64,000 bases of DNA from an uncultured Paraglaciecola sp. (GCF_943787955.1 NZ_CALSOK010000012.1:2619-66618); one strand, 5' to 3'. Counted from the stretch's first letter, positions 16,644 to 47,067 are shown. The notes: generated from the sequence alone by a model not told the origin. Program-made: numbers and translations.

Positions 16644-17536
16644 TATGATTTGCAGAGGGTAATATTATGTCAAAGTCACCTTTTATAGAATATGTTCGAA
16701 CTATTTTGCGAACCAAAAGGTATAGCATAAAAACTGAAAAGGCCTACCTTCATTGGATTAGGCGATTTATTTATTTCAACGGCAAGCGTCACCCTAAAGA
16801 TATCGGTGAACTAGAGGTTGAACAGTTTTTATCACATCTTGCCATAGCGCTAAAAGTCTCGCCAACGACTCAAAATCAAGCCTTGTGCGCCATCATTTTT
16901 ATGTATCGTCATGTGCTTAATATGGACTTGACTAATATGTCCTTTAAATTTGCTAAGACGCCTGTCCGTGTACCTGAAGTATTAAGTCATAATGATGCGA
17001 TTGCTGTAATCGATAAATTACGAGGGGTTCATCATACTATTGGGACATTAATGTATGGCGCGGGATTTCGTATATCTGAGGTGCTGAAGCTGCGCGTAAA
17101 GGATTTTGATTTTGAACGAAATACTATTTTTATTTTTCATTCAAAAGGCCAAAAAGACCGTGTAACCATGTTTCCAGAATTGACTAAGACCGAGATTACT
17201 AAACAAATTCAAAAAGTGGAGTGTATTCACCAAAAGGACATTGATGAAGAGTATGGACTGTCATCACTACCACCTGCTCTAATTCGTAAATATGGGAAAG
17301 CCGCTACTAACTTATCTTGGCAATATATATTTCCTTCAACTACACGATGTGTCCCCCTTACGATGGCTATGTATGCCGGCATCACCTTCACCAAACTGGG
17401 TTTCGAAAGGCCTTAAAGAAAGCAGTGCAAGAAGCAGGCATTTTAAAACGGGTTACATCACATACCTTTCGTAAGCGTCCGGTGATCCACGCCTAGCAGT
17501 CATCCATTATTCATTCGAAAATACTTCCTCACTGTA

Positions 17537-17845
17537 ATGGGAGGTATTATGAAGCATAAAACACTAGATGAATGGCAGAAATTGATAAGCCAACAACAAA
17601 CGAGTGGGTTAGCCATTGTTGATTTCTGTAAAGAGCACAGAGTTAGCACATCAAGTTTTTATAAATTTCGTGGGCGATTACAACAGCAAGTTAACCCGCC
17701 TCGTTTTGTAAAAGCTAGCAAGTCTGCTATCGACGCGACTATTCAACCATCAGTATCTGTCAGATTGGGCGAGGTTTCGTTATCTTTTTCGACGTCTTGC
17801 GAGCCTGTTTGGTTGGCAAGTTTCGTTAAGGCACTGCAATCATGA
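17537..17845 (+). CDS. tnpA: IS66 accessory protein TnpA
   Basis: WQKLISQQQTSGLAIVDFC...SSFYKFR HTH; first ORF of the IS. Confidence 0.88.
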   Translation: MGGIMKHKTLDEWQKLISQQQTSGLAIVDFCKEHRVSTSSFYKFRGRLQQQVNPPRFVKASKSAIDATIQPSVSVRLGEVSLSFSTSCEPVWLASFVKALQS

Positions 17846-18192
17846 GAATGTTCGTTGAGCCAGATGACATTTATTTGCACCTTGAGCATGTTGATTTTAG
17901 AAAGTCGATTAATGGCTTGCTGGCGATTATCGAAAGTGAATTAACATTAAACGCATTCTCCGGTGCATTATTTATCTTCTGTAACAAAAAACAAGACAAA
18001 CTCAAACTCTTATACTGGGATAAAACCGGGTTTGCATTATGGTACAAACGGTTGGAGAAACAACGCTTCAAATGGCCTAAGTGTGGCCAACTCAAACACA
18101 CTAATTTGAGTGAGCAGCAGTTAACATGGTTGCTCGGTGGCTATGATGTCGTTGGACATCGCAGCTTGGATTACACGGCCTCTGGGTTATAA
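17842..18192 (+). CDS. tnpB: IS66 accessory protein TnpB
   Basis: VDFRKSINGL, KLLYWDKTGFALWYKRLEK. Confidence 0.93.
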   Translation: MRMFVEPDDIYLHLEHVDFRKSINGLLAIIESELTLNAFSGALFIFCNKKQDKLKLLYWDKTGFALWYKRLEKQRFKWPKCGQLKHTNLSEQQLTWLLGGYDVVGHRSLDYTASGL

Positions 18193-18269
18193 CGTACGAT
18201 CATAAGTAGCATTTAACGATCACGTTTTAATCTAATTGAAAACAGTCACTTAGGGTTATAATAAGTGAC

Positions 18270-19766
18270 ATGAATAAAGCCCAACTACGCCAACAAATAG
18301 CCGAGCTTAGCAAGCAAGTTGAACGATTAGAAAGTCGCAATCAGTTTCTTGAAGAGCAGTTTCGTCTTGCCCAACAAAAACAATTTGGGGCGAGTAGCGA
18401 AGGTCACCCTGGTCAAGGTGAATTGTTTAATGAAGCAGAAGAGCTGGTTGCTGAAACACCTGTCGAAAAAGAAGACATCAGCTACACACGCAATAAACCT
18501 AAGCGTAAACCATTACCAAAAACATTACCTCGTGAAGTGGTTATCCATGATATTGCACAGGAAGATAAAGTCTGTGCTTGCTGTAACAATGAATTGCACA
18601 AGATAGGTGAAGACAAGACTGAAAAGCTTGAATTCATCCCTGCTCAAGTTAAAGTGATAGAGCATGTTCGTCCTAAGTATGCGTGTCGTGTATGTGAAAA
18701 GGACGGCATTAGCAATCACATCAAACAAGCACCGGTGCCACCTTCAGTTATCCCTAAAGGTTATGCGACACCAAGCTTACTTAGTCAGGTAATCACCAGT
18801 AAATATCAATTTGGGTTGCCACTGTATCGTCAAGAAGCGATGTTCAAACAATACGGTATTGAACTGAGCCGCAAAACTATGGCCGATTGGATGTTGAGGT
18901 GCGCTGACTTGCTCACACCGCTATATGACCATTTACACGAATTGATACTTAAGCAAGGCGTCATTGCCGCTGATGAAACCACCTTAAAAGTCGTCAGCGA
19001 AGATAAAGCGAAATGCTATATGTGGGTGTATACCTCAGGCGCCGACTCACCTGAAGGGAAATTACCCAATACTGACATCCCAAATATCGTGCTGTACGAC
19101 TATCAATCGAGTCGCGCGGGTCAATGTGCCGTGGATTATTTACAGGGTTACAACGGGTATCTACAAGTGGATGGCTATGCGGGTTACCACAAAACCCAAG
19201 CGACACTCGCAGGCTGTTGGGCCCATGCGAGACGTAAATTCGTTGAAGCCAAAACCGCACAGGGCAAAAAATCTAGCGGCAGAGCCGATTGGGCACTTAA
19301 CCATATTCAAAAGCTGTATCGTATTGAAACGCAAATAAAAGCGAGTGCACCTGATAACAGGCGGAAAGTAAGGCAGGAAAAGAGCACTATATTGCTCAAA
19401 CAGTTCGAAGCGTGGCTGATAAAATCAGAGTCGCAGGTATTGGCAAAAAGCAAATTAGGCGAAGCCATCACCTACTGCTTAAATCAGTGGAGTAAACTCA
19501 ACACTTACACCCAATATGGTCACCTGAACATCGATAATAACCGCGCTGAGCGCGCGATAAAACCCTTCGTCATAGGCAGAAAGAACTGGTTGTTTAGTCA
19601 AACGGCCAAAGGCGCTAAGGCCAGTGCCATACTGTACAGCATTATAGAAACTGCAAAGGCAAACGGACTAACGCCGTTCGACTATATGATGCATTTACTT
19701 GAACAAGTCTCGGTTCAAAACACCGATATCGAGCCACTGCTACCATGGCGATTTGCTAAAGACTAG
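18270..19766 (+). CDS. tnpC: IS66 DDE transposase TnpC
   Basis: Zn finger CACC...[47 protein letters not shown]. Confidence 0.96.
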
Positions 19767-19990
19767 GTGGGATTGCCGGACGCTTACTACCTTTCGGCAT
19801 AGTTTCGCAACAAGATTGCTTGAAACAGGACATGACATCAGAGTCGTGCAAGAATTACTGGGGCATGATGATGTAAAAACCACGCAAATTTACACCCACG
19901 TTTTAGGTAAGCATAAATCTGGAGCAATAAGTCCGACGGATGTGAGATGAAAGACTTAAAATATTAGCACACCTATTAGCCAGACTCTTA

Positions 19991-20107: not shown

Positions 20108-21052
20108 CTACTTTATCTCTGTGCTATTCGTGTCCTCGCCATTTGTAACTGTCATCGTTTTTGTGTCCCTGACATAGACCGTTTCGCGCAGCAATGCTGT
20201 GCGACCGATACAAGTCCCATGGCCGGGTGCAACGGGATTGTCCTGCATATATTTGATGAATACTTTGTCTGCGTGGCGACTTGCAACGACGTGATACTTG
20301 CCGTCTGACGTATCCAACAACGCCATAAAAGCATATTGCGGTTTGCAAATACGCGCAGCGACATTCAGGACTTCGTCCAGAACCGGGTTGAGTTCATGCG
20401 GGGATCGCGAAATAACGGCAAGGACATCAGATGTAGCAGTCTGATATGCTAGTGCTTCTTGTGTTTCGTGCAAAAACCGTGAATTTGCGATGGCAATGCT
20501 GGCTTGCTCGGCAAAAGTCTGGATCAACGCGATATGAGAGTGCAGCGGAGTATCAGCTTCCGGCCAGGCCCTAATGATCGAACCCCAGACTTTGCCATCG
20601 CTAAGTATCGGAACACCTACCATTTGGCTAAATCCAAATCTCCGAGCCGTCGCGTGATCAAGGTAAACTTCGGATTGTGCATCCAGAACACGAACCACTT
20701 TGCCAGTTTTGATCAGAACGGCCGAAATCGACTTTTCCAGTGTCGGCTGAGCCGGTCGCGACGTATGAAATTGATTGTATTCTTCGGTGAACCCGTAGCT
20801 GGAACAATAGTGATCCAAATCACTTTCATAGCGCCAGACCACACTAAATTGCTAACTACAAAGCTCAGTTGCGCTTTTTGCAATTGTGTCAAACACCTGC
20901 TGGATGTCGTTGGTTGACCTTTCGATGACGTGCAAAATTTCGACCATAGCCGCGGCTTGCGCGCGTTGGCTTGGCAGCTCAAGTTTCAGGTTTTTCACTT
21001 CCTGAATGAGTTTGATGATTGCCTTAGACTGTTTAATGGGGTCTGATTGCAT
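20108..21052 (-). pseudogene. Truncated multi-GAF-domain sensor protein
   Basis: Repeated GAF blocks (IQQVFDTIAKSATELC, QTFAEQASIAIANSRFLHETQEALAYQTATSDVLAVISRSP). There is an in-frame TAG at 20852-20854, a frameshift near 20160, and no output domain. Confidence 0.75.
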
Positions 21053-21283
21053 CGCCTAAAATCATTCAAAAAATGAACCAGCGCGCGCCAAAACTGCTCC
21101 GTTTTACATTCATGAGAACTGTAGCGATGAAACCTGTTATAGCAATCAGTTTTTCCTGAGGCTTCCATAATGAAAGCACTGGAACTCTTGTTTCCAAGTG
21201 CTGACTGATCATTTTTGTGCGATAGAGAAATCCACTGGTTTACTGCCATTTCCTACGGAAGGTAACGTAGACCATCATGTGGG

Positions 21284-22066
21284 TCAGAACGATTTTTGGG
21301 CGCGGATGTGATGCGGGCAATGTTCACCGGTCTCCAAAGGCAGGATCATGGCGGCCCAAAGCTCTTCCATTTCTTGCATGTAACTGGCCCCATGGGCACG
21401 ATCAAATGCGTCCCGTTCTTTTCCCGTCATCAACAGAAATTCGTTCTTGGCCACCTCAAAATACCACGGATTGCGATTGCGCAGACCAAATTGGGTAAAG
21501 CCTGCGTACGAAAATGCACTTTCATAGCGAGTCGGGGAAGCCATCGCAAAGTCCAAATCTTCAAGTTTGATGTAAGCCTGCATTTCGGGAGACGGGGTGT
21601 TGTCATGCGAAATCAGCCAATCAGATGCCACAAACCAACCCCCCGGCACCAAAACACGAAAAACTTCCACGGCCAGAAATTCCTTGTCCGGAATGTGAAT
21701 GATTGCGTCCTTTGAAAACACGATATCAAAGGTAGCGTCAGTGAAATCAAGCGGTCCGGGTTCAACCTGCCGGATGGTGATGTTCTTGCCAAAACCGGAT
21801 TGATCGGCACGGGCACGCGCTGCGGTACAGACGGGTTCTTCGACATCAATGCCTGTTACATGCGCCGCACTATGGTCGCGCAAAAGGGTGACAGCTATTG
21901 CCCCTGTGCCGCAGCCAATGTCCAGAACCCGTTTGCCTTTCAGATCCAAACCTTCAACAACGCGCGCAACTTTTTCAGGGCCGCCGGGCGACAAATAACC
22001 TTCGCCCCAGATCGCTTCGAGAAAAGAAGTAAGTTCGCTATCATAATGCAATTCGATATCAGCCAT
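21284..22066 (-). CDS. Class I SAM-dependent methyltransferase, phosphoethanolamine N-methyltransferase-like
   Basis: VLDIGCGTG motif [40 protein letters not shown]. Confidence 0.75.
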
Positions 22067-22146
22067 TTCAGATGTCCTCTATTTGTAGGGAATTGATATA
22101 GGCTTCGACAAAACGTTGCGCATAAACTTCCATCGACACAAAGGAA

Positions 22147-23215
22147 TATAGGTAAAATAAAACGTCATTTTTCCTAAAATTAAATTACATGATGCCTTAT
22201 ATTTTCCATATTGACATCTATTTCATATTCTTAAGGGAGTGAAATTCGGCTATTTTTCGTTTATTAATCAACTGTTTCTACGTAATTCAGAATTCAAGAC
22301 AAGCGCTTCCCGCTGTTGTGCAAACCAGCTCTGAATACTGCTTATGATGATGAACGGCTTTTATTCAAACAGACTTATCTGAGGCGGTGCTCGACTTTGT
22401 GGGGGCAATAATTCAACGACTTCGTCATTTTTTGTATTCAGGTGACTGAGTATCTTTTGGATCACCAATGGATGTGCAAATCGGCTTTACTGCCGATTTG
22501 TCAATGCTCGCTATAACCTTAACTGCACCAGCGCGATGCTCACAGGTTTCAATGTCGATGTTAAAAACCCGTTTAAGTCTTTGCGCCTAGGTCATCGATT
22601 AGTGTTTTGTGCCCGTGTTTTTTCCTGCCCTGTCGGCAAGGCTTGTTTAGTCTTATTTCGTAAAGACGGCGTTATTGTCACGCGGTGCCGACTGTTTGGT
22701 GGAGGGCCACCCCGTGGAGGGCCACCCCGTGGAGGGCCACCCCGCACAAATACGCCATGTACTAATTCATCAGGAATGAATTAAGCCAACCAGAGGTTGC
22801 CCGTAGGGTGAGAAACAGGAACGTTTCACATCTAAGCGCCTCAGATTAACGCGGGGTCTGGGTACCAAGGCCGCTAAACGGGCAATAAATTCCAGCGGCT
22901 CAAAGTGCACATGACTGTGCCGGTCACCGGTGGTGCCGTCACGGTAGGGTGTTTTTAGTTTGGAACGCACCTTAGGGTAAGTCGTTATTGCCAACCTTTT
23001 TTATGATACCCCAGAGCGGGACTCTCTTCACAATAAGCAACGGCACAGCCTTTCGAGTTTACCCCTATCCTGTGAGTTGCTCATGACACCTGCATGGAGA
23101 CTGAAGCCTGCCACATTTGCGGCACAGCCTGACGCAAGCCCCTGCTCTGCCATAGGTGCAATGTTTTTTTCGTCCTTGCTGTTTGCCTGTAGCGATGCGA
23201 TAAGTAATGGATTAC
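22147..23215 (-). mobile_element. Degenerate IS91/ISCR-family (Y2 HUH rolling-circle) transposase 3' half plus oriIS-like end, copy 1
   Basis: Minus-strand fragments in order: SITYRIATGKQQGRK, AGFSLHAGV..KLERLCR, SRSGVS*KRLAIT, LKTPYRDGTT..FEPLEFIARLAALVPRPRVNL, HGVF..PNSRHR, MT*AQRLKRVFNIDIETC. The element ends GACGTTTTATTTTACCTATA. Confidence 0.85.
22699..22743. repeat. 15-bp tandem repeat GTGGAGGGCCACCCC x3
   Basis: Read directly. It is an in-frame insertion within the transposase HGVF-APNS motif. Confidence 0.95.
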
Positions 23216-23217
23216 CG

Positions 23218-24645
23218 CTATAGCGTTTTTTTTATTTTCTTGTCGACAGCAATAAATGAAAAATTTATACACATCTCATCATTACTACCAAAACCTCCGT
23301 AAATTGGGTATTCCCAGGGATTGGTATATTCGCATTCAATGCTGATCTTGTAATCTTTTAAATCTTTTTCAGGTAAGACTTTGGGTTTGTGAAAGGTGAA
23401 ATTCCTTTGCCAGTTTAAATCCCAATTATTGATTGTTAGTAATCTTTCACGGTTACCCAATGGATCATCAAGAAATACTTTTCCGGCCTTTCCGTAGCTG
23501 TGCATATGTATATTTGCAGAGTGTAGTTCCAGGTTTTTTATTTCTTTGGATTTTATTTTAAGTATTGACAGAACCCGCCGTTGAATTTTCCTAAAATTTT
23601 CTGTTATTGAATAACTTGCTTCTTGTTTAGAGGGAATTACCATGGTTTTATTTCCCTTGCTATTTAACCATTTTCTATTTGTAATTGTTACAAAGAACCC
23701 GGGTTTTTTAACCTCTTTCTTCGTTATGAAGTGCATTGCGCTGTTTTTATCTGATTCGCCTGGAGCAAACGCTGAGTAATAATGCATTTGTGCGATGATT
23801 AATGCACCAGGTTCAATTGGAATGCCTGTGTCTTTAGGAAATTGAATGCCATTCATTCCTGGAGCCCAGTGTGAAAGAAAATTGATTCCACTATTTATTT
23901 TTCTGCTTAATCCATCTTCAAGTTTGTCTAATGCTGCACGCACACTGGGGTTGCCTAAGCGATCAGGTGCTCCCCCCCCGAAACATTCATAACCTGATCC
24001 TTCTTCCTCTGATTCCATTTTTCTTAAATGAGGAGCAATCTCGGGGGTAGCAGTAAATAATATTAAGTGGTGTATGACTTTTGCGTTTCCCGGTATGGCT
24101 CTTAACCCCGTAATATAAGTCTTCTCTTTCTCTGGCCATTCCATCAAGAAGCAGTGATAGTCGTCTTTTTTATTCTGATTAGGTAAATAACTGTTGCCAT
24201 TGTTAACAATAACTTCTTTATCTGATTTAAATGTTGAATTCTGGGCGGTATAACTGAGTATATTTTTAACTTTTATTAAAGCATTGTTTCGTGCGTAATT
24301 GTTTTCTCCCCATTGTGTGAAAGTACGTATCTCTTCTTTATTGAGAGAGTAGTCATCCTCATATTGTATATGACTTGGCTCTGCCAGCCAGGGCGGCATT
24401 CGGCGCTCTTCTACAGCCGATACCATGGCCGGTCCAAATTTGTAAGCTGTCTCAGGATTTTCAAATGAAAATGATATGCCTGATTCGGAATGACACAGTA
24501 GACAATGATTTTGAAGTATTGGGGTAATATGTTCTTCAAAGGTAATGTCGGCAGTGGCTTTTAGGCATATCAGCGCCGCTGTTGTAATGACTAAGAGTGA
24601 TTTGGTGATTCTCAACCTATCTGGCTTCCACTTGTTGCATAGCAT
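23218..24645 (-). CDS. Secreted copper type II (PHM/DBH-like) monooxygenase with N-terminal c-type heme domain
   Basis: Signal-like N-terminus, CLLCH heme motif and RMPPW. Copper ligands: IHHLILF, AQMHYY, IHMHSYG and DEMCINF. Confidence 0.8.
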   Translation of the reverse strand: MLCNKWKPDRLRITKSLLVITTAALICLKATADITFEEHITPILQNHCLLCHSESGISFSFENPETAYKFGPAMVSAVEERRMPPWLAEPSHIQYEDDYSLNKEEIRTFTQWGENNYARNNALIKVKNILSYTAQNSTFKSDKEVIVNNGNSYLPNQNKKDDYHCFLMEWPEKEKTYITGLRAIPGNAKVIHHLILFTATPEIAPHLRKMESEEEGSGYECFGGGAPDRLGNPSVRAALDKLEDGLSRKINSGINFLSHWAPGMNGIQFPKDTGIPIEPGALIIAQMHYYSAFAPGESDKNSAMHFITKKEVKKPGFFVTITNRKWLNSKGNKTMVIPSKQEASYSITENFRKIQRRVLSILKIKSKEIKNLELHSANIHMHSYGKAGKVFLDDPLGNRERLLTINNWDLNWQRNFTFHKPKVLPEKDLKDYKISIECEYTNPWEYPIYGGFGSNDEMCINFSFIAVDKKIKKTL

Positions 24646-25234
24646 TTATTAACTGACTTTTTGATTCAGAGTTGAGGTGAGATGCGTAACGAAAAACGAC
24701 TTTACCTTCTTTGTTGACCAATAAAATCAATGGTACAGCAGATACATTTAGTTCTGTTAGCAGGTTAGAGCTTGCTTCTGTATAAAAGGCATGTTGATAT
24801 TTTGAGTAGAGCGTGTGTTTTTGAATATAAGTTCTGGCATTTTCATCATTGTTATCATTGTTATCATTGTTATCATTGTTATCAATGTTAATTGATGCAA
24901 AGTTTATCAGTGGAAATTGATCTAAAATCGGATCTAAATCCCATATGATACCCGCGCAGCTATGGCACCAGGGTGCCCAAAATTGAATTAGTGTAGGGCT
25001 TTGAGGCAATTGACTTTGTTTACCCTCCACGATAGTTTTGAGACTGTGATTTTTGGGTATTCGTTGTTCAGAGATTTGGTTTTTAGAAGAGTGTTCTTGA
25101 TGCAACGGGTTTGATGGTTCTTTGGCCGCAAAGGTATTTTGAATCACAAGGGTGCTGGCAGTAATTGCCATAAACATGACTAAAGTAACTGGTACAGGCT
25201 TAAGTTTTTTCTTGGGAGTTCGTTGAGTTGTCAT
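24617..25234 (-). CDS. TlpA/thioredoxin-like periplasmic redoxin
   Basis: N-terminal TM/signal segment, LIQFWAPWCHSC, VSAVPLILLVNKEGKV. Contains (CATTGTTAT)x4 at 24847-24882, encoding NDN repeats. Confidence 0.85.
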   Translation of the reverse strand: MTTQRTPKKKLKPVPVTLVMFMAITASTLVIQNTFAAKEPSNPLHQEHSSKNQISEQRIPKNHSLKTIVEGKQSQLPQSPTLIQFWAPWCHSCAGIIWDLDPILDQFPLINFASINIDNNDNNDNNDNNDENARTYIQKHTLYSKYQHAFYTEASSNLLTELNVSAVPLILLVNKEGKVVFRYASHLNSESKSQLINAMQQVEAR

Positions 25235-25643
25235 ATCGTGTACGATTTATATGCTTGGGTTGAGTAATTGTTAGGATAATTATTATACAGAAGATGTAGC
25301 ATTAGTCTTTACCTACGTAAATTGTTTGTGGGGTCTATATTCATTATTGTTGAAATAGACTTATTTATAAGACTATCTAATGCTGCTAATCAATGGAAAA
25401 AGTATAGCTTGAAAAGGTGGGAGACGTATCCTTACACTACGGTAGAAGCTACGGTAAAGGGCAGCTATTCCATACTTGCAGATTGTCGTATTAAAGGAAA
25501 TTGGGCTAGCCTAGGTAAAACAAAGGGAAATTAATGGGTCCGTTGTAAGCGCTGGGGAGTTTTATCTTATTATGTAAAATACATTTACCAACTGCTCATA
25601 GCATTTTTTTGCTGAAAAGATTATTGAAAATTAGACTTGAGTC

Positions 25644-28600
25644 TTAGTTCCGGACCACCTTGAAATTTTCTGGACCCACTCTAGTTAGCCTATAAGTCGG
25701 TCCTACAGGAAAATCGCCTTTGATGACTTGAGTTTCACCGGTAGATCATTTCACTTCAATAGTGGATACGTTGCCAAACTCAGCCAGGCCAAAGTGAAGA
25801 GTTGGTGCATCAAATGATAGGTAGCCACCGCTGGTTTTGAGTTCTCGAATTTGCTTAAGTGAATCTTCAGGTCCGTAATGAATAATCACTTTGGTACCAA
25901 TACCAAAGTGATTCCCTATATAGTCTCACAGTTCAATATCAATGCTGTTGCCAGAGTCCATTTGATTGAGATGAAAAATTGGCAAGACGTCAAAGGGGAC
26001 TGTGATAATGTCCTGATCACCATCGCTATCTATATCGAGGAACGAGAATGCTCCTGCGGTTAGATGGCTGGTTAAACCAGCTTTTTCGGTTTGGTCAACA
26101 AAATGTTGGCCCTCTATATTGCGTAAGAATTTATTGGATGCCCATTCTTTTTTAATATTCACGCCATTAACTACATAGACATCCTGGCATTGATCGTTGT
26201 CGAGATCAGCAAAGCGTGAGCTCCAGGACCAACCGGTAACGTCCAAACCCCAATCGACAGAGTTTTCTGTAAAGCGCCCATCGGTTTCACAAGTAAACAG
26301 TAGATTTAGTCTTTTTACTACTTCGACATACGGAGTTTTTGGTTTTTCACTTTCCTTTACACGCTTCTCAAGGGTTGGCAAAGTTGGGCAAGTTCTTCCC
26401 ATCGTGTTGAAAACAACGTGCAATATTTATTTTCCTCAGCCCCTTTCAATTAAGGTCGAGCCTTGAGACGGAATAGATTAGTGGTAATGCAATCTTTTTG
26501 GTCCAGGGGGTTGCAAGGTTCAGGCTGGCAAATGGCGTGGGTGCTTATACAGCTTAATGCAAGTTGGCTCTGAGCTCACAATGTTGTCGCCATTTGTTGC
26601 TGCTAATCTCCTTGCAGGCCTTTTCATTGGGTTTGAGGTTTAAGCGTGCTCGCTGACTGGGTTTGTTGCCTGTGGTCTGGGTGAGGAAAAGCTCCAGAGA
26701 CAAGTCATTATTGATGTCAGCTGAGTCGTAACTCATGCTGGTGGAGCCGGATTTAAGTGATAGATTGTGTTCGCGCATAACCAGATTCAGTTCGCCAGAA
26801 CCGTTACCAAAAAACAGACTATCCGGCACGCCAAAATCATTTGCAAAAATGATGTCCATATCACCATCCATATTCAGATCCGAAAATAATATCAAGAGTT
26901 TTGCTCCAGGCGGATCCGGTAAGAGTTCAGCTTGGTAACCAAGAAAACTTGGACGTAATAGTACGTTTCTGGATCGGTCGGTCGTGCGTCTATGTTCTTG
27001 CGTAACATAATTGCCGAGAGCGATTTCCAGCAGTCCATCCTTGTCGAGATCTCCAAAACCGACAGATAGTGCGAAGTCAGCCTCAACTTTGGGTAAAACG
27101 TGTAACTGGGTTGGTGGGAAATGACCTTGCTGGTTATACAATACAAAATTGCCTTTTTTAAATGCAGAAAAGAACACATCCAGCCATCATTGTTAAGGTC
27201 AACCCGCGCAGTAGTGAATATGGTTGTGTCCTCGAACCCATCAAACCCGAGACTGTGTTCGACGTAGTATTGCACCACATCCATTGCATATAAGCGAAGC
27301 TCGTTGTTGACTTTGATTAATAAATCGGTGCGCCCATCGTTATATACATCTCCGGTGGCGATGCCAGCTATTTATATAAACGGTAACAAACCGTGATGCA
27401 TCGATGGACGCGGTAGGTAACCATCTATCCCCATTTGCACGCTGTCTGTGCGTCCGAAAGTTAATTCGTTGCCGCCCTGGCGATCATTATAGGGGCGGTG
27501 TTGTACCTGCAATTGTGGAGTGCTTAGAGATGGTAAATCTTGAAAGGCTAAGGCTGTAGTCTTTAGATCATTAATTAATTTGTCATCACTTGAGCGGTAG
27601 GGAGTGTTTCGCTCGATCATTGTAATCTCGGTGCCGTTGTCTTCGGAAAAGGCTTCATAAAATAATTTCAGATTACGTGCTTGCACATATTTACCAACAT
27701 AGCTCGCTGTGAATCCATCAGCAGCACCCATACCGACTAACACAACAGCAATCGTGGCAGAAACTCTCCAGGAGATTGCATTGCCAATAATTGAAAACGA
27801 ATACACACTGAAAATTCCCAGGGTAAATAACAGCACCATCACATAGCTGGCAGGTAAGCCCGCAGCATATAAAGCCGCACTTATGGCTACGCCAGAGGCG
27901 ATAGGTACCGGCAAAAATAAACCGAACATGGCCGTCAGCCTAATGAATAGCAATTTCTTCCAACGTTTCACGTATTCGATATTTGCAGTAATGGTTTCCC
28001 AGGGCAACACACTGACCAGCAATGCTCCCAGCAGGCCTGCCAGCATCATCAGGGGAATGATTACTCTTATGATAAACCACAGATTATTGGCATAGGCTTT
28101 TGGATACCACAGTGAAGTATGCAGCCAGCTATCTTCTTGTTCGATGTTGATGCCAGCGGGATTGATATCGATTTCACACTGGTCTTCATGGTTTTCCTGG
28201 GCAATGGGCCAGCGTGAAAACAAATATTGGCTCAACAGTGGGATAAGAAGTAAGATGAAGCCAGTGCAAAAATTAGTTTCTGAACCACAAAGCGCAGTGG
28301 TAATAAAGTGAACATCATGATTAACATAATCACATTTAATGTGGGCGAGCTAATCATTGTCGCCAATGTTGTCTCGATGCGTGTCCCCGCATCATGCATA
28401 CCACGAGCAATAGGCGCAAACACCCAGAGGTGCCCCAATAGCGCCCCAAAAAAAGTTATTGGCAAAATGCCCTTTAAAGTAACGTACGCGAAATAGAGGA
28501 ATTAATGTTAAAAAAGCGGCTCCCAATAACACCCCAAAAATCATTCCTTGCTGATTGGTATGAGCCCAGTTAATGTTGGTGCAGGTTACCTTTTTCCATA

Positions 28601-28790
28601 ACGGGAAGTGCGGCTTAACAGGAAATACAGCTTCGAAGCTCAATGGATCCTCAAAGCGTAGGTCAGCTATCATAGCAGTCTTTTCATTTAAAGCTGGATA
28701 GCGAGAGCCGCTCCAGAATAGGCCCATCAAAATCATGATGACCAGTAATGACAGGGTTAATTGCTTGTTATTGTTTATGACGCTCAACAT
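25644..28790 (-). pseudogene. Decayed fusion gene: permease domain, FG-GAP/CRTAC1-like repeats and ASPIC/UnbV C-terminal domain
   Basis: Fragments in register: YPALNEK..EDPLSFEA; GAPLGVC; MISSPTLNV; LFLPVPIA; FGDLDKDGLLEI; FSDLNMDGDMDIIFANDFG; WSWSSRFADLDNDQCQDVYVVNG; then GNHFGIGTKV..GGYLSFDAPTLHFGLAE, with two TGA stops, ending at 25644. Confidence 0.78.
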
Positions 28791-29058
28791 GCTCTCAGGT
28801 ATCGATTAGTATTATGCAAGGACATGAGTAACGGCTAAATGGTATTTTGTTTATGTGTATCTTATAAAGTAGCTGATTAGGTCCAGCTACTTTCATACCA
28901 AACATACAAAAGCTTAAACTTATATTGAACTATACCAATAACATCATTTGTTAATAATGCCGACATGAATTTAGTAGGAATCCTAGAAAATTCAACAATT
29001 CTGTCCCGTTTGCTATTATTTGCCCTGATTTAGCATTTAATTTATTAGTGAAAGGAAT

Positions 29059-30064
29059 ATGACAGCCAATAACAACAACGGCAGTAATCTTCAGTGGATT
29101 TTACCCTTTGTATTACTTACCGCCTTGTTGCTAGTAGAGTTACTGGTTGTGGGCCTGCGGGTGGATGCGCAAACTCTCGCAAGTAAGGACGGTGTGCTGG
29201 CATTGGTGCTGTCGAATATGGGCCACCTTCACGATTTATACTTGTCTTTGTGGTGGCCTTTCTTAATTTATTGACACCTCGTTTTAAGGTTCACATCCAG
29301 CTATTTTGGCGAGCCAGGGCCAGCGTAAAAAGTGGTATTGGTTGCTGTTGCAATGCATTGCTTTTATTTTCTCACCATTGAAATATTTGCAGGCAGTGCT
29401 GTAACGAGCGATTCGGCTTTGCTGATTGCTCTGGGATGGTTTTCGCGGCTGCTGTTATCGCCGTGTGCTCCCTTTTATATTGGGGCCGCTCAGTTTTTGG
29501 AATATTTTTTTAGCAAAAGAAAAATCAGCTTTGCTTGTAGCGGCCGCTATTGGTGTATTGACTTTTTTTGTCGCCAATTCTAACAGTTTTGGTATCCTTT
29601 GGACAAGATGACCTCCACAGTTTCTCAATGGTTTTTGGAGCTGATGTTTGATCGGGTTCATGTTGATAAAGTTAATTTAGCCCTTAGCGCGGAAGATTTT
29701 ATCGTCATCATTGCGCCAAGTTGTCCCGGGTATGAGGGCATAGGATTAATCTCCATATTTACAGGCCTTTATCCTTGGGTATTTAAGCGGGAATTCCATT
29801 TCCCCCAAGCCTTCTTACTGTTTCCCATTGGCATTATTTCGGTCTGGGTATTAAACGCGCTGAGAATTCATCACTGATTGCGATGGGCGCTACCTTTTCG
29901 CCTAAAATTGCCTTGGAGTGTTTTCATGCACCGGCAGGGTGGATCTTCTTTACTGCGAAGGCTGTTGGCTTATTCTTGCTATCTCAATGTATCAAATATT
30001 TCTCTAATGAACACGTCGTTAAGGACATGCATTCTGATGATGTTGAACTGTCAACGAATTTGAG
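29059..30064 (+). pseudogene. Fragmented exosortase (resembles exosortase E of the VPEID-CTERM type), 3'-truncated
   Basis: Multi-TM fragments with IAPSCPGYEGIGL (catalytic Cys), VLNALRI and FHAPAGW. Several stops and frameshifts, cut at the oriIS-like end. The subfamily call is tentative. Confidence 0.65.
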
Positions 30065-30724
30065 TATAGGTAAAATAAAACGTCATTTTTCCTAAAATTA
30101 AATTCCATGATGCCTTATATTTTCCATATTGACATCTATTTCATATTCTTAAGGGAGTGAAATTCGGCTATTTTTCGTTTATTAATCAACTGTTTCTACT
30201 TAATTCAGAATTCAAGACAAGCGCTTCCCGCTGTTGTGCAAACCAGCTCTGAATACTGCTTATGATGATGAACGGCTTTTATTCAAACAGACTTATCTGA
30301 GGCGGTGCTCGACTTTGTGAGGGTAATAATTAAACGACTTCGTCATTTTTTGTATTCAGGTGACTGAGTATCTTTTGGATCACCAATGGATGTGCAAATC
30401 GGCTTTACTGCCGATTTGTCAATGCTCGCTATAACCTTAACTGCACCAGCGCGATGCTCACAGGTTTCAATGTCGATGTTAAAAACCCGTTTAAGTCTTT
30501 GCGCCTAGGTCATCGATTAGTGCTTTTGTGCCCGTGTTTTTTCCTGCCCTGTCGGCAAGGCTTGTTTAGTCTTATTTCGTAAAGACGGCGTTATTGTCAC
30601 GCGGTGCCGACTGTTTGGTGGAGGGCCACCCCGTGGAGGGCCACCCCGTGGAGGGCCACCCCGTGGAGGGCCACCCCGCACAAATACACCATGACTAATT
30701 CATCGGGAATGAATTAAGCCAACC
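30065..30724 (-). mobile_element. IS91/ISCR-family remnant, copy 2 (near-identical direct repeat of 22147-22791)
   Basis: Aligns with copy 1 from TATAGGTAAAATAAAACG to GAATTAAGCCAACC, with scattered substitutions. Carries the 15-bp repeat x4 (30618-30677). Cut on the right by IS3. Confidence 0.88.
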
Positions 30725-30787
30725 TGTTGTGGTTGAATTAACCGGACACTTCAATAAAGGATTATAATCCTGTTAATTGAGGTGAAT

Positions 30788-31075
30788 ATGACTAAACGAA
30801 CAAATAAACATTATCCCGCAGAATTTAAACAAGAAGCGGTCGCTCTGGTAATAGAGCAAGACTATCCAATCGTACAAGCTGCTGCATCTTTAGGTGTGAC
30901 AGACAAACTACTTTACAACTGGGTAGCTAAGCATAAGAAACAGGCACTAGGTGATGCATTATCTGGTGATGAACGGGCAGAGTTAATTCAGCTCAGGAAA
31001 GATAGTAAACGTCTACAAATGGAGCGTGAAATCCTAAAAAAGGCCAGTGCCTTCTTCGCGAAAGAAATGAAGTAA
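30788..31075 (+). CDS. IS3 transposase OrfA
   Basis: HYPAEFKQEAV HTH; ends LKKASAFFAKEMK. Confidence 0.9.
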   Translation: MTKRTNKHYPAEFKQEAVALVIEQDYPIVQAAASLGVTDKLLYNWVAKHKKQALGDALSGDERAELIQLRKDSKRLQMEREILKKASAFFAKEMK

Positions 31076-31113
31076 GATATTCTTTTATAAGTGAGCTTGA
31101 TGCGAAGTATCCG

Positions 31114-31944
31114 GTGTCAGTTGCTTGTAAAGTGATGGAAGTGAGTTCGTCAGCATACTACGCATGGCTAAAAAAACCTGGTGAACTCATTAGCGCTCAA
31201 ATGCTAAGACTGTATCGACGAGCCAAAGCATTATTCAAGGCAAGTCGAAACAGTTTAGGCAGCAGAGAGCTTGCTAAAGCACTACGCAAAGAAGGCTTTG
31301 AAATAACGCGGTATCGCGCCATTAAGTTAATGGAACGGCTTAAATTAGTTGTGACTCAGCGAATAGCTTATAAAGTGACAACCAAGCGCAAACACAGTGA
31401 TGCTGTGGCTGACAACTTGCTAAATATGAATTTCAATCCTGTTGGACCCAATCAAATTTGGGCGGGTGATGTGTCCTATTTAAAGACTGGTGAGGGCTGG
31501 TTGTACTTAGCCATTGTCATGGATTTGTATTCACGCCGGATTGTAGGTTGGCATATATCAAAACGCATGACGCGTGATTTGGTCGAGCAAGCACTGACAA
31601 AGGCTCATAATTTACGCAAACCACCAAAAGGTTTGGTGTTTCACAGTGACAGAGGCTCTCAGTACACGAGTAAAGGCTTTAGAAATCTACTGTCGCGATT
31701 AGAGTGTCGAGCTAGTATGGGAGATGTTGGAGCTTGCTGGGATAATGCTGTTGTGGAGCGCTTCTTTGGAAGTTTAAAGCATGATTGGTTGTTTAAAGTA
31801 CCGCAGCCCACTCGAACACATATGCGAGAAGATGTTGCTAGGTACATGAAATATTATAATGTTGAGCGACTACATTCAGCTAATTTGGATCAATCGCCAA
31901 TTGAATTTGAAAACTCCTTTAGAAAAGTGTCCGGTTGGACTTGA
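31114..31944 (+). CDS. IS3 transposase OrfB (DDE), probably expressed by -1 frameshift from OrfA
   Basis: WAGDVSYL, VFHSDRGSQY, CWDNAVVERFFGSLK. The -1 frame is open back across the orfA stop. Confidence 0.92.
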   Translation: MSVACKVMEVSSSAYYAWLKKPGELISAQMLRLYRRAKALFKASRNSLGSRELAKALRKEGFEITRYRAIKLMERLKLVVTQRIAYKVTTKRKHSDAVADNLLNMNFNPVGPNQIWAGDVSYLKTGEGWLYLAIVMDLYSRRIVGWHISKRMTRDLVEQALTKAHNLRKPPKGLVFHSDRGSQYTSKGFRNLLSRLECRASMGDVGACWDNAVVERFFGSLKHDWLFKVPQPTRTHMREDVARYMKYYNVERLHSANLDQSPIEFENSFRKVSGWT

Positions 31945-32027
31945 CCAGAACAAACTTATTCAAAATGTTACTGCAAAATAAAAAATCAGAAGCTTTTTAC
32001 AACCGAACAGTTTCTTTACCAATGTCA

Positions 32028-32519
32028 CTAATTTAGCCACTGGCGTATGTATTCGATGGAATTTATACACCATTCACTGATACCATTTGGTGTTTTTACA
32101 GCAACAATGTCGTTGACTTCCTTTTTCAATAAGGGCCCTAGCCATGGGGGAGTCGATAGAAATATACCCAATAGCATCACCATAAATTTCCCTCTGGGCC
32201 GACAATTCGAAATTTTTTTACTTCGCCCATATCATTTTTAATCTCAACCCAAGCCCCAAAAAACACTTTTCCTTCCTGTTCCTTTGAATAACTGATGATT
32301 TTTAGCTCAGGTAGCAGTTTTCTAAGAAATTGAATACGCCGATCAATTTCCCTTAATTTTCTTTTTATTATATTGATAATCTGCGTTTTCACTCCTGTCT
32401 CCAAGGCTTGCAGCCCAAGTTACAATTTTGGTGATTTCTGGTCTTTGTTTAAGCCATATTTCTTCATGCTCGTCATGAAGCTTTTTATACCCTTCAGGTG
32501 TTATCAGTTTTGTTTTCAA
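32028..32519 (-). pseudogene. greB: Transcription elongation factor GreB with three +1 frameshifts
   Basis: TTG start, KTKLITPEGY..VTWAASLGDRSENADYQYNK/KLREIDRRIQFL..GKVFFGAWV..FRIVGPE/EIYG..ISIDSPMARA/LLKKEV. Extra bases at about 32357, 32190 and 32131. Confidence 0.85.
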
Positions 32520-41361: not shown

Positions 41362-42081
41362 GAATTTTTCACGTTAATATAGTCGCTGATTTCGTCTGTT
41401 ACAAAAGTAAATTGAATTTTAAATCGATGAATTATTTAGTATTTTAAATATACCTGTTAAATAGAGGACATGCCACTTGTCAAAGCTTGCTTGGAAAGAT
41501 ATTCACACTGTGTTGCTTGATATGGACGGCACCTTACTCGACTTGCACTTCGATAATCATTTTTGGCTAGAACATATGCCCAAAAAATTAATGGAGAAAC
41601 ATGGCATGTCGTTATTAGCGGCCAAAGAGATGATGGCCATTGAGACTGAACAGGTCATGGGAACTTTGAGTTGGTATTGCTTAGATTTTTGGGCAGACAA
41701 ACTTGATGTCGATATTATGGGGGCTAAACGCGAGATGGAACACCTTATTAGTATACGTGAAGACAGCTTACCTTTTATTAATGCCTTAAAAACTTCAGGG
41801 CGAGACGTAATATTGGTCACTAATGCCCATCCTGACAGCTTATCATTAAAGGTAGAGCATACTCGACTAGACAACCATATCGACCAATTAATATCGACTC
41901 ACGAGTTCGCCGTCACCAAAGAATCGCAAGTTTTATGGCAAAAGCTTCAGGTAAAACTTGGTTTTAATCCGCAACACACACTATTTGTTGATGACAGTTT
42001 GGGCATACTAAAAGCGTAAGCGTCCGGTGATCCACGCCTAGCAGTCATCCATTATTCATTCGAAAATACTTCCTCACTGTA

Positions 42082-42390
42082 ATGGGAGGTATTATGAAGC
42101 ATAAAACACTAGATGAATGGCAGAAATTGATAAGCCAACAACAAACGAGTGGGTTAGCCATTGTTGATTTCTGTAAAGAGCACAGAGTTAGCACATCAAG
42201 TTTTTATAAATTTCGTGGGCGATTACAACAGCAAGTTAACCCGCCTCGTTTTGTAAAAGCTAGCAAGTCTGCTATCGACGCGACTATTCAACCATCAGTA
42301 TCTGTCAGATTGGGCGAGGTTTCGTTATCTTTTTCGACGTCTTGCGAGCCTGTTTGGTTGGCAAGTTTCGTTAAGGCACTGCAATCATGA
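42082..42390 (+). CDS. tnpA: IS66 TnpA
   Basis: Translation identical to 17537-17845. Confidence 0.88.
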   Translation: MGGIMKHKTLDEWQKLISQQQTSGLAIVDFCKEHRVSTSSFYKFRGRLQQQVNPPRFVKASKSAIDATIQPSVSVRLGEVSLSFSTSCEPVWLASFVKALQS

Positions 42391-42737
42391 GAATGTTCGT
42401 TGAGCCAGATGACATTTATTTGCACCTTGAGCATGTTGATTTTAGAAAGTCGATTAATGGCTTGCTGGCGATTATCGAAAGTGAATTAACATTAAACGCA
42501 TTCTCCGGTGCATTATTTATCTTCTGTAACAAAAAACAAGACAAACTCAAACTCTTATACTGGGATAAAACCGGGTTTGCATTATGGTACAAACGGTTGG
42601 AGAAACAACGCTTCAAATGGCCTAAGTGTGGCCAACTCAAACACACTAATTTGAGTGAGCAGCAGTTAACATGGTTGCTCGGTGGCTATGATGTCGTTGG
42701 ACATCGCAGCTTGGATTACACGGCCTCTGGGTTATAA
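42387..42737 (+). CDS. tnpB: IS66 TnpB
   Basis: Translation identical to 17842-18192. Confidence 0.93.
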   Translation: MRMFVEPDDIYLHLEHVDFRKSINGLLAIIESELTLNAFSGALFIFCNKKQDKLKLLYWDKTGFALWYKRLEKQRFKWPKCGQLKHTNLSEQQLTWLLGGYDVVGHRSLDYTASGL

Positions 42738-42814
42738 CGTACGATCATAAGTAGCATTTAACGATCACGTTTTAATCTAATTGAAAACAGTCACTTAGGG
42801 TTATAATAAGTGAC

Positions 42815-44311
42815 ATGAATAAAGCCCAACTACGCCAACAAATAGCCGAGCTTAGCAAGCAAGTTGAACGATTAGAAAGTCGCAATCAGTTTCTTGAAGA
42901 GCAGTTTCGTCTTGCCCAACAAAAACAATTTGGGGCGAGTAGCGAAGGTCACCCTGGTCAAGGTGAATTGTTTAATGAAGCAGAAGAGCTGGTTGCTGAA
43001 ACACCTGTCGAAAAAGAAGACATCAGCTACACACGCAATAAACCTAAGCGTAAACCATTACCAAAAACATTACCTCGTGAAGTGGTTATCCATGATATTG
43101 CACAGGAAGATAAAGTCTGTGCTTGCTGTAACAATGAATTGCACAAGATAGGTGAAGACAAGACTGAAAAGCTTGAATTCATCCCTGCTCAAGTTAAAGT
43201 GATAGAGCATGTTCGTCCTAAGTATGCGTGTCGTGTATGTGAAAAGGACGGCATTAGCAATCACATCAAACAAGCACCGGTGCCACCTTCAGTTATCCCT
43301 AAAGGTTATGCGACACCAAGCTTACTTAGTCAGGTAATCACCAGTAAATATCAATTTGGGTTGCCACTGTATCGTCAAGAAGCGATGTTCAAACAATACG
43401 GTATTGAACTGAGCCGCAAAACTATGGCCGATTGGATGTTGAGGTGCGCTGACTTGCTCACACCGCTATATGACCATTTACACGAATTGATACTTAAGCA
43501 AGGCGTCATTGCCGCTGATGAAACCACCTTAAAAGTCGTCAGCGAAGATAAAGCGAAATGCTATATGTGGGTGTATACCTCAGGCGCCGACTCACCTGAA
43601 GGGAAATTACCCAATACTGACATCCCAAATATCGTGCTGTACGACTATCAATCGAGTCGCGCGGGTCAATGTGCCGTGGATTATTTACAGGGTTACAACG
43701 GGTATCTACAAGTGGATGGCTATGCGGGTTACCACAAAACCCAAGCGACACTCGCAGGCTGTTGGGCCCATGCGAGACGTAAATTCGTTGAAGCCAAAAC
43801 CGCACAGGGCAAAAAATCTAGCGGCAGAGCCGATTGGGCACTTAACCATATTCAAAAGCTGTATCGTATTGAAACGCAAATAAAAGCGAGTGCACCTGAT
43901 AACAGGCGGAAAGTAAGGCAGGAAAAGAGCACTATATTGCTCAAACAGTTCGAAGCGTGGCTGATAAAATCAGAGTCGCAGGTATTGGCAAAAAGCAAAT
44001 TAGGCGAAGCCATCACCTACTGCTTAAATCAGTGGAGTAAACTCAACACTTACACCCAATATGGTCACCTGAACATCGATAATAACCGCGCTGAGCGCGC
44101 GATAAAACCCTTCGTCATAGGCAGAAAGAACTGGTTGTTTAGTCAAACGGCCAAAGGCGCTAAGGCCAGTGCCATACTGTACAGCATTATAGAAACTGCA
44201 AAGGCAAACGGACTAACGCCGTTCGACTATATGATGCATTTACTTGAACAAGTCTCGGTTCAAAACACCGATATCGAGCCACTGCTACCATGGCGATTTG
44301 CTAAAGACTAG
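42815..44311 (+). CDS. tnpC: IS66 transposase TnpC
   Basis: Translation identical to 18270-19766. Confidence 0.96.
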   Translation: MNKAQLRQQIAELSKQVERLESRNQFLEEQFRLAQQKQFGASSEGHPGQGELFNEAEELVAETPVEKEDISYTRNKPKRKPLPKTLPREVVIHDIAQEDKVCACCNNELHKIGEDKTEKLEFIPAQVKVIEHVRPKYACRVCEKDGISNHIKQAPVPPSVIPKGYATPSLLSQVITSKYQFGLPLYRQEAMFKQYGIELSRKTMADWMLRCADLLTPLYDHLHELILKQGVIAADETTLKVVSEDKAKCYMWVYTSGADSPEGKLPNTDIPNIVLYDYQSSRAGQCAVDYLQGYNGYLQVDGYAGYHKTQATLAGCWAHARRKFVEAKTAQGKKSSGRADWALNHIQKLYRIETQIKASAPDNRRKVRQEKSTILLKQFEAWLIKSESQVLAKSKLGEAITYCLNQWSKLNTYTQYGHLNIDNNRAERAIKPFVIGRKNWLFSQTAKGAKASAILYSIIETAKANGLTPFDYMMHLLEQVSVQNTDIEPLLPWRFAKD

Positions 44312-44559
44312 GTGGGATTGCCGGACGCTTACCTAAAAGCGGCTCAGGACTTCGGTATTAAACACCTTCTGGCTGTTAGCAACCCTGATAGTCAGCAACC
44401 TGTTAGAGAGATCAGCGAGTTTCCATCAATACAGGACTATCGTTATTTGCTGGACGATATAGAAGCGAACCCGTTTATTAATTGAATTGGGATTAGGACA
44501 AATTAATTAAACGCTCAATAACCATAAATCATAGTGATTGTAAAACTGTCTTAACTGTT

Positions 44560-45303: not shown

Positions 45304-45779
45304 GATTTCCCTAGTTTTAAACGACGAATTTTAACTTGCCCAGGCAAATCAGATGCTGTGATATCAATGTCTAATATGCTGACTCCCGTTTTTTCCATGG
45401 ACTGTAACCAACTCAGTATGTCATTAAAGGGGGCTTGATCAATCCAAACTTGTAATTCGTCACCTTGAGGTTGCATCCGAGAAATAGCAATTTTCATGCG
45501 GCTAGCTGATTGATTTACTGCTTGAGGCAAGGAACCAGAAAAGCGCGTGTTGTTGTCACCACTACTGCGCAGTTGAGCAGCTCGATTAGCATTTTTCTGT
45601 ACCCATGCAAGTAATTCTGTTTGATTGTTAACGGCGGATTGACCTCGCTCTAGTGAAGTATTTAATGGCGACCAAATACCCCAGTAAAATATCGCTACTA
45701 TTACTAACACCGCTGAAATAATCACTAAGCGTTGTTCACGCTCACTTAGTTGTAAAAATGTACTTTTTAGCTTGTCCAT
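45300..45779 (-). CDS. gspM: Type II secretion system protein M
   Basis: LSEREQRLV..YWGIWSP; position in the operon. Confidence 0.9.
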   Translation of the reverse strand: MDKLKSTFLQLSEREQRLVIISAVLVIVAIFYWGIWSPLNTSLERGQSAVNNQTELLAWVQKNANRAAQLRSSGDNNTRFSGSLPQAVNQSASRMKIAISRMQPQGDELQVWIDQAPFNDILSWLQSMEKTGVSILDIDITASDLPGQVKIRRLKLGKS

Positions 45780-45780
45780 A

Positions 45781-46989: not shown

Positions 46990-47067
46990 AAGGTCTATAT
47001 ACCTTGTTGCTTATAATGGATTAAAAAAGCTATTTTGTTAAAAGCCAGCTCGTTAAAAACTAGTCTG

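Follow-up and report, generated by a model that had tools for sequence, protein, structure and literature searches.

Did a rolling-circle element of the ISCR type carry a block of environmental genes into the chromosome of a marine bacterium, or did its remnants only come to border that block? ISCR elements are blamed for the assembly of multi-resistance regions; to our knowledge, movement of such an element has never been shown directly, and we know of no established origin for ISCR1 or ISCR2. The question is raised by a stretch of 64,000 nucleotides from an uncultured Paraglaciecola sp. (GCF_943787955.1, NZ_CALSOK010000012.1:2619-66618, here G000:C12:2619-66618), called the window below, in which two decayed transposase fragments, c1 (22142-23216) and c2 (30060-30724), enclose about 6.8 kb of other DNA. 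The host genome comprises 4.23 Mb in 26 contigs with a guanine-plus-cytosine (GC) content of 40.6%, and its genus is indicated by an ABC-F protein of the window that is 91% identical to proteins of P. arctica and of Paraglaciecola metagenome-assembled genomes. The original prediction, drawn from the sequence alone, was of gene capture by an ISCR-like element. It is virtually certain that c1 and c2 are ISCR relics with genuine oriIS ends, oriIS being the end downstream of the transposase gene and terIS the opposite one. ISCR copies probably made the junctions seen here, either by transposing or by serving as portable homology. A tentative reading, to which we give somewhat less than an even chance, is that rolling-circle read-through carried the cargo along with c1; the findings neither refute nor prove the capture idea.

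Identity of the repeats

The two copies are direct repeats on the minus strand and are about 98.6% identical at aligned positions. A repeat search of the window paired 22144-22443 with 30062-30361 (98%), 22605-22775 with 30524-30694 and 22761-22791 with 30694-30724. BLAST joined c1 and c2 in one match of 664 columns at 96%, a 15-bp repeat-unit indel counted in, and MAFFT placed nine substitutions, two 1-bp indels and the one 15-bp repeat unit over about 650 bp. The minus-strand peptide of both copies (...SMT*AQRLKRVFNIDIETC...; ...SMT*AQRLKRVFNIDIETCEHRAGAVKVIAS...) corresponds to the decayed C-terminus of an IS91/ISCR transposase and matches SMTWAQRLKRVFNIDIETCEQCGG of an intact relative. Beyond the shared part, c1 continues to 23216 with the peptide ...GFSLHAGV...LERLCR...LKTPYRDGTT...ARLAALVPRPRVNL..., which gives a Pfam Y2_Tnp match (E=2.7e-9). 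The claim of near-identical direct repeats that encode a decayed C-terminus of a Y2/HUH transposase was thus borne out by repeat search, BLAST, MAFFT and Pfam alike. The protein identity of c1 to ISCR1 transposases is 57-67% (57-60% in the longer stretch), and the window copies cover only positions 87-171 of the Y2_Tnp profile, stops included.

Intact copies of the element were found in congeners, as three independent insertions (G015:C7, G048:C20 and G035:C23), from whose comparison the boundaries of a 1805-bp element (L034:1355-3159) were set. Their transposase frames, 493-508 amino acids long, match ISCR1 at 68-69% identity (residues 16-505) and ISVsa3/ISCR2 at 68%, which places the family with the HUH/Y2 rolling-circle transposases (Zn_Tnp_IS91 plus Y2_Tnp). 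Aligned to this element, c1 (minus strand) is a dead, 5'-truncated fragment that spans element positions 895-1805; it holds decayed codons from about residue 260 to 493, with stops, frameshifts and small indels, followed by a 3' non-coding end of about 210 bp, and lacks terIS and the first ~260 codons. The 30060-30724 segment (minus strand) is the 3' part of a second dead fragment, c2, which when reconstructed reaches further 5' (element 745) than c1 does; terIS is absent from both window copies.

The 3' ends carry the family assignment. On the minus strand, c1 ends in GGAAAAATGACGTTTTATTTTACCTATATTC (22142-22172) and c2 in ...TTTTACCTATACTC, and both terminate sharply at ...GACGTTTTATTTTACCTATA(T/C)TC, as had been predicted. 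The terminal 21-mer occurs twice in the window, at these two ends, against 0.01 expected by chance, and a 21-mer search of the window gave no third oriIS end. To the base, the same ends close the intact elements in L032, L033 and L034. The oriIS ends of ISCR1 and ISCR2, taken straight from plasmid records, align with them: GCAAAAAGGTGGTTTATACTTCCTATACCC in ISCR1 and GTGAAAAGGGCGTTTATTCTTCCTATACGT in ISCR2 against GGAAAAATGACGTTTTATTTTACCTATACTC in the Paraglaciecola family. The c1/c2 terminus was likewise aligned with ISCR1 (GGTTTATACTTCCTATACCC) and ISCR2 (GCGTTTATTCTTCCTATACGT), with the shared ending ...CCTATAC, so that the conserved oriIS terminal sequence of the ISCR group (...TTCCTATAC-like) is present at both. 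In ISCR1, ISCR2 and the Paraglaciecola element the oriIS end lies about 210-230 bp past the stop codon. At the terIS side, the 5' end GCTAATTAG... is common to at least eight copies across the genus. The two ends of the intact element are unlike each other and form no terminal inverted repeats, and the flanks of the copies in L032 and L034 hold no common direct repeat, in keeping with the prediction that the element makes no target duplication.

Both the assignment to the family and the identification of oriIS are secure, because the ends agree to the base, the oriIS sequences align, the stop-to-end spacing is shared, target duplications are lacking, and the 20 oriIS ends of the host genome all have unrelated flanks. 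The predicted IS91/ISCR (HUH-Y2) affiliation therefore holds, at 57-69% amino acid identity to ISCR1 transposases and 68% to ISCR2, as does the claim of oriIS-like termini. The element is a previously unnamed ISCR of Paraglaciecola within the IS91 family, about equally distant from ISCR1 and ISCR2. It is not IS91 proper: the best score against the NCBIfam model NF033538 (transpos_IS91) is 29.9 bits with a cut-off of 125, and no GTTC/CTTG target adjoins the 20 oriIS ends, with at most a weak CT(C/T)N after CCTATA in 12 of them.

Since terIS is missing and a working transposase is lacking, c1 and c2 are incomplete relics of an ISCR member, not functional members, and neither is able to move by itself today. 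Folding of the oriIS end gave no stable hairpin beyond chance (z ~0), as for ISCR1, and no consensus match to an outward promoter that could drive the neighbouring methyltransferase gene was found on that strand of the c1 end.

Both copies hold a secondary insert, at 22699-22833 in c1 and from 30617 to the IS3 joint at 30724 in c2 (both minus strand), delimited by alignment to the intact element and to the allele L052, which are without it. At the HGVF|APNS codons it consists of about 80 bp with a hairpin (TAATTCAT..ATGAATTA) and a 15-bp tandem repeat, in three copies in c1 and four in c2. The hairpin insert with its variable 15-bp repeat (GGAGGGCCACCCCGT, one to four copies) is confined to ISCR fragments, recurring at C1:16916-16987, C1:17536-17610, C10:95508-95652 and C2:502640-502770; IS3 copies lie inside it in c2 or adjoin it on C1.

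Two features of the intact relatives were also noted. Their terIS region forms a strong hairpin with a folding z-score of -6.5 (L034:1355-1470, from G015:C7; also L032). Just upstream of the transposase start codon stands a perfect palindrome with a 16-bp stem, ACACCTATACTGTATAAAAATACAGTATAGGTGT. Within it are a LexA box (CTGT-N8-ACAG) and a pair of inverted CCTATAC motifs resembling the oriIS end; the ISCR2 counterpart of the LexA-box site is at L069:1140-1165. The palindrome is consistent with the SOS control reported for ISCR1, ISCR2 and ISCR8 (PMC13393415).

Fragments of the family in the host genome

About 50 fragments of the family, 70-96% identical to c1, are scattered over the host genome. 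An intact copy, which the original prediction had proposed to look for here, was found in congeners only: none of these fragments encodes an intact transposase, Y2_Tnp matches across the genome span only profile positions 79-179, and a search of the genome with the ISCR1 protein returned pieces with stops only. Counted in 100-bp bins along the element, the copies number 2, 3, 3, 2, 3, 3, 2, 2, 6, 10, 8, 9, 6, 7, 8, 17, 26, 27 and 15, that is, two to three over the first 800 bp as against 17-27 over the last 300 bp, an enrichment of the oriIS end of about tenfold. The commonest form is anchored at oriIS and varies in its 5' end. In the IS91 family, transposition begins at oriIS, runs past terIS in 1-14% of cases, takes neighbouring DNA along and involves circular intermediates (PMC13181058); ISCR elements are presumed, not demonstrated, to work in the same way (PMC13393415). 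The polarity of the fragments fits that expected of copying from oriIS with frequent early stops.

A terminal piece of 325-335 bp recurs among these fragments and in many congeners (examples are C2:29038-29366, C6:108688-109021, C10:313228-313570 and C13:93807-94129). Its 5' boundary falls within about 10 bp of element 1474-1485, at the IEDP codons, and the upstream DNA of each piece is unrelated to that of the others. Several longer copies carry small hairpin inserts of 26 to 77 bp at the same position. Stopping or recombination may be favoured there, or the piece may be a non-autonomous 'mini' element.

Cargo and the seam at c1

Only two genes of the cargo are intact, both on the minus strand. 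A copper monooxygenase of the PHM/DBH type (23218-24645, 475 amino acids; Pfam Cu2_monooxygen and Cu2_monoox_C), heme-fused, is complete, its C-terminus aligning with the ends of its homologues, and a thioredoxin-like gene of the TlpA/DsbE type (24617-25234) was assigned by Pfam and NCBIfam matches. An FG-GAP/ASPIC-UnbV pseudogene in at least three pieces follows (25235-27284, minus strand), with Pfam FG-GAP_3 matches on open reading frames 25926-26423 and 26554-27177 and an UnbV_ASPIC piece in L057, and then a permease-like membrane gene (27372-28790, minus strand), split into frames of 132 and 287 amino acids, for which Pfam and NCBIfam gave no family match. The last is a frameshifted exosortase E pseudogene, xrtE (29059-30061, plus strand; TIGR04162 matches at 29599-29877 and 29883-30095). 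It breaks off near profile position 309-311 of 516, just where it meets the oriIS end of c2, and its remainder was not found in a search of the whole genome, which returned the two window pieces only; it lies neither beyond the IS3-family element next to c2 nor beyond the relocated 5' half of c2.

The cargo was sought in GTDB species genomes, in a set of 5.8 billion proteins and by exact-protein look-ups. The nearest homologue of the monooxygenase outside the species is 52% identical in the 5.8-billion-protein search, the best ones being from Oligoflexia and gammaproteobacteria; GTDB species genomes held cargo relatives at 44% and 36% only, and the gene is absent from the 30 relatives searched. 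The thioredoxin-like and monooxygenase genes form a conserved two-gene module (23218-25234 in the window), found also among distantly related bacteria in L048, L070 and L071 (Kangiellaceae, Oligoflexia and others). Its neighbours elsewhere differ each time, the pair being the sole conserved part.

At the other end of the cargo, ISCR homology ends at 23216, 2 bp from the native stop codon of the monooxygenase gene (23218-23220), much as the original prediction had described. On the oriIS side of c1 stand a broken GAF gene and an intact phosphoethanolamine-N-methyltransferase-like gene (20108-22066, minus strand; methyltransferase 21284-22066), whose best homologues, at 60-70%, are from Rhodobacterales. 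GC content is 49-51% on this side as against 35-38% on the monooxygenase side (37.8% in the monooxygenase gene itself). The methyltransferase and GAF genes are absent from the 39 congeners searched, and in the other genomes examined the methyltransferase never follows the thioredoxin-monooxygenase pair. The GC step and the different affinities of the homologues show that the two flanks of c1 are of different origin; the methyltransferase/GAF segment was acquired separately from the cargo, and c1 forms the seam at which these unrelated foreign segments meet, in an accessory region, riddled with insertion sequences, that was built piecemeal.

These observations bear on the view that two truncated ISCR copies inserted independently into one foreign block, c1 in a 78-bp spacer from the monooxygenase to the methyltransferase gene and c2 in xrtE, followed by deletions and gene conversion, so that the 'cargo' would be whatever DNA lay in between. 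Truncated, oriIS-anchored copies are the commonest form of the family, removal of c1 leaves two intact co-directional genes 78 bp apart, and deletion or rearrangement is clear on the 5' side of c2. Since the flanks of c1 differ in origin, however, a simple insertion of c1 into one contiguous block is disfavoured: GC steps from 51% to 37% across c1, the phylogenetic affinities change with it, the module occurs elsewhere without this methyltransferase as a neighbour, and the rest of xrtE is missing. We regard two independent insertions as quite unlikely.

Disruption of c2 by an IS3-family element

The original prediction let the second copy end at 30724. That position is no native end; an IS3-family element of 1228 bp with orfA and orfB (30725-31952, plus strand), delimited by its genome copies and its target duplication, interrupts c2 there. 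The displaced 5' part of c2, comprising element 745-1255 and the rest of the insert, lies at C6:114887-115467, immediately next to a further copy of this IS3 element, and the 3-bp target duplication ACC matches between contigs C12 and C6. To the right of the IS3 element in the window lies a greB pseudogene (32028-32519, minus strand, from its reading frames), the start of a conserved backbone (greB-fkpA-...). In the closest relative, G011, greB adjoins genes that in the host sit on C6 beside the IS3 copy. The matching halves and duplication together with the gene order of G011 therefore show that an exchange between two IS3 copies parted the halves of c2 and put greB-fkpA beside c2, and the right-hand neighbourhood of the block, with greB next to IS3 and c2, is secondary. 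For the reciprocal IS3 junction, the intergenic DNA of G011 is too diverged for confirmation.

The IS3-family element has about 45 copies in the genome at 97-100% identity, near-identical copies that point to recent activity. Many genes are frameshifted (greB, xrtE, the FG-GAP gene and the permease gene among them), suggesting an expansion of insertion sequences with ongoing gene decay. On C6 (C6:111184-114747), the original 5' neighbour of c2 is a sulfotransferase-like gene that has lost its 5' part and is frameshifted; after it come SGNH/AlgX-like and MBOAT (AlgI-like) polysaccharide-modification genes, which would suit an exosortase locus.

How the arrangement may have arisen

Capture by read-through from c1 would have proceeded as follows. 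An ISCR copy just downstream of the thioredoxin-monooxygenase pair would have lost its terIS, and replication from its oriIS would then have run through the element into the upstream DNA, as one-ended transposition, and come to a stop within xrtE. The resulting 7.9 kb of cargo and truncated ISCR would have been fixed beside, or by homologous recombination with, a truncated ISCR copy already resident upstream of the methyltransferase gene, giving the direct repeats. Gene conversion would later have made the 3' 650 bp of c1 and c2 nearly identical, and finally the IS3-family element would have split c2, with IS3-IS3 recombination removing its 5' half and bringing in greB. Taken as a whole, this history is close to an even call, falling just on the doubtful side. 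The architecture fits what ISCR-linked accretion predicts: a seam, a copy without terIS joined to the end of an intact gene, another gene severed exactly at an oriIS end and lacking its remainder, and two direct copies, the upstream one reaching further 5'.

Of the original claim that the block was moved by an ISCR-like element, the geometry stood: the cargo lies on the terIS side of c1 and is absent from the relatives searched. Several points nevertheless weigh against the capture history. No experiment has yet demonstrated capture by an ISCR element, ISCR1 included (PMC13393415), and every copy of the element in this genome is dead. Metagenome blocks and exact-protein look-ups gave no second context of the cargo and neither the c1-monooxygenase nor the oriIS-xrtE joint elsewhere, and GTDB species genomes and the 5.8-billion-protein search gave no donor. 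Overall, the GC content of the cargo (41%) equals that of the genome. The relatives hold no empty site, because the DNA across c1 is also foreign (monooxygenase and methyltransferase being absent from the congeners searched); greB-fkpA synteny is kept in G002, G006, G008 and G011, and nothing left of greB there matches the window. The 5' flank of c2 is a truncated unrelated gene, so that extra deletions or rearrangements are required under any model.

The remaining points on that side come from the population. Exact monooxygenase and methyltransferase sequences occur in more than 60 metagenome assembly blocks, all from the same locus; the methyltransferase-c1-monooxygenase arrangement is present in every informative contig, and none of the methyltransferase-bearing contigs is a cargo-less variant. 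In L050 and L054, c1 and c2 are identical over the last 330 bp, where those of the window differ at about eight positions. The c1 allele of L052 has flanks about 99.9% identical to the window, yet its interior past the first 250-300 nucleotides is 4-7% different and lacks the 80-bp insert, and L053 has a different form of c2. One point speaks for the capture history: in the window genome, c1 and reconstructed c2 match each other better than any other copy throughout the length they share, at about 93% identity in the 5' part, away from the converted stretch, and about 99% in the 3' part. In the population, ISCR copies continue to undergo non-allelic gene conversion or recombination. The near-identity of c1 and c2 is therefore no evidence of one recent event, repeat identity cannot serve as a clock, and the alleles of L052 and L053 mean that flanks can be swapped without a rolling-circle step.

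The same data suit an account by homology-driven shuffling only, in which recombination and gene conversion among the dead ISCR fragments, with IS3 and IS66 copies, joined the blocks without any rolling-circle co-mobilisation. The variants in L052 and L053 combine the same flanks with different ISCR interiors, the identity in L050 and L054 is what conversion produces, an IS3 by IS3 exchange is documented at c2 and an IS66-bounded inversion variant in L051, and substrates are plentiful, with 45 IS3 copies and about 50 ISCR fragments. It leaves unexplained, however, why the break in xrtE coincides exactly with an oriIS boundary while the rest of the gene is missing from the genome, and why oriIS-anchored fragments are so strongly enriched; it also requires two parental loci, neither of which was found. 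Shuffling alone is somewhat unlikely.

Contig L057 (7986 bp) corresponds exactly to a single unit of c1 plus cargo (7918 bp), circularly permuted and with a 68-bp terminal overlap. It might be taken to show that the 7918-bp nick-to-nick unit, with its two direct oriIS ends, can still be mobilised and excised as a circle by a transposase acting in trans. The geometry suits this, as replication from the oriIS of c1 meets that of c2 first. On the other hand, the genome has no intact transposase, a 7.9-kb unit with near-identical 600-bp repeats cycles in any assembly graph, contigs of the L056 type show the usual repeat-bounded pattern, and old Joint Genome Institute (JGI) pipelines joined contigs by overlap. 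A unit that is still mobilisable is most improbable. L057 is the product expected of a circle or tandem copy, yet equally the assembler product of a unit with 600-bp flanking repeats, and was given little weight; the circular or tandem form was set aside, as repeat-induced assembly explains the contig.

In a broader form of the capture history, the oriIS ends would be portable start sites: truncated pieces, including the 'mini' form, would be copied in trans by intact ISCR transposases, and c1 with its cargo might exit as a 7.9-kb circle, as contig L057 would suggest. We consider this very unlikely. If true, bacteria would have an equivalent of non-autonomous Helitrons, and the locus would document rolling-circle gene capture under way in nature.

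Comparison with known systems

Like ISCR1 in complex class 1 integrons, where 3'CS-ISCR1-captured gene-3'CS2 arrangements (3'CS, 3'-conserved segment) sometimes have two ISCR1 copies as flanks, the locus shows unrelated DNA that starts exactly at the oriIS boundary, loss of terIS with the 5' side fused to foreign DNA, and direct repeats, in addition to the 68-69% transposase identity of the intact relative and the matching oriIS end about 210-230 bp past the stop codon. Unlike ISCR1, it lies in a marine Paraglaciecola chromosome without an integron 3'-CS, its transposase is dead and half deleted, its oriIS end holds no outward promoter-like site, and its cargo is a redox gene pair with pseudogenes instead of resistance genes.

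The ISCR2/ISVsa3 units, in the form ISCR2-cargo-deltaISCR2 in SXT/R391 integrative and conjugative elements (ICEs), GIsul2 and tet(X) plasmids, resemble it in that 5'-truncated direct copies flank the cargo, in the 68% amino acid identity and the oriIS ending CCTATAC, and in the LexA box (CTGT-N8-ACAG) before the transposase gene of the intact relatives (PMC13393415). The Paraglaciecola element differs from ISCR2 in being a separate element (<70% identity), in that its copies here are all decayed, and in having no link to an ICE or plasmid. With IS91 and IS1294 it shares functionally distinct ends and the lack of a target duplication, and the oriIS-anchored fragment spectrum fits their polarity (PMC13181058), whereas the kinship is distant (below the cut-off of the transpos_IS91 model), with no evident GTTC/CTTG target and no orf121.

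Going by description only, the locus can be likened to ISCR8/ISPps1 of environmental catabolic plasmids, a multicopy ISCR-type element with non-resistance environmental genes (PMC13393415); unlike those here, ISCR8 copies are intact and plasmid-borne. The original prediction had stressed that the mechanism known from resistance regions here carried environmental metabolic genes. The genes are indeed not resistance genes, but only two of them are intact, and the carriage of non-resistance genes by ISCR elements has precedents, such as ISCR8 in environmental plasmids (PMC13393415).

The locus thus adds an environmental, chromosomal ISCR example: a 68% relative of ISCR1 and ISCR2, whose intact copies in sister species bear a LexA box and whose oriIS-anchored fossils number in the dozens. 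Its value is as comparative material, for the oriIS/terIS consensus, the polarity of truncation and the gene conversion that homogenises copies; it provides no new mechanism. The pair of a thioredoxin-like protein and a heme-fused copper monooxygenase is a separate question, as the one functionally interesting cargo.

Other features of the region

Two identical IS66 copies lie in the window, at 17468-19787 and 42015-44332. In contig L051, an IS66 copy beside the GAF gene leads into the type II secretion genes of 44333-48648, and the segment of about 22 kb between the IS66 copies, which holds c1, the cargo and c2, appears to be inverted in part of the population. An integron-type integrase gene (16667-17416; Phage_int_SAM_4 and Phage_integrase) is cut by IS66 and adjoined by a sulfotransferase gene. 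This small dead integron lies 5 kb from the ISCR relics, and nothing indicates a link to an integron 3'-CS of the kind known for ISCR1; in L066 the integrase gene is without the IS66 copy.

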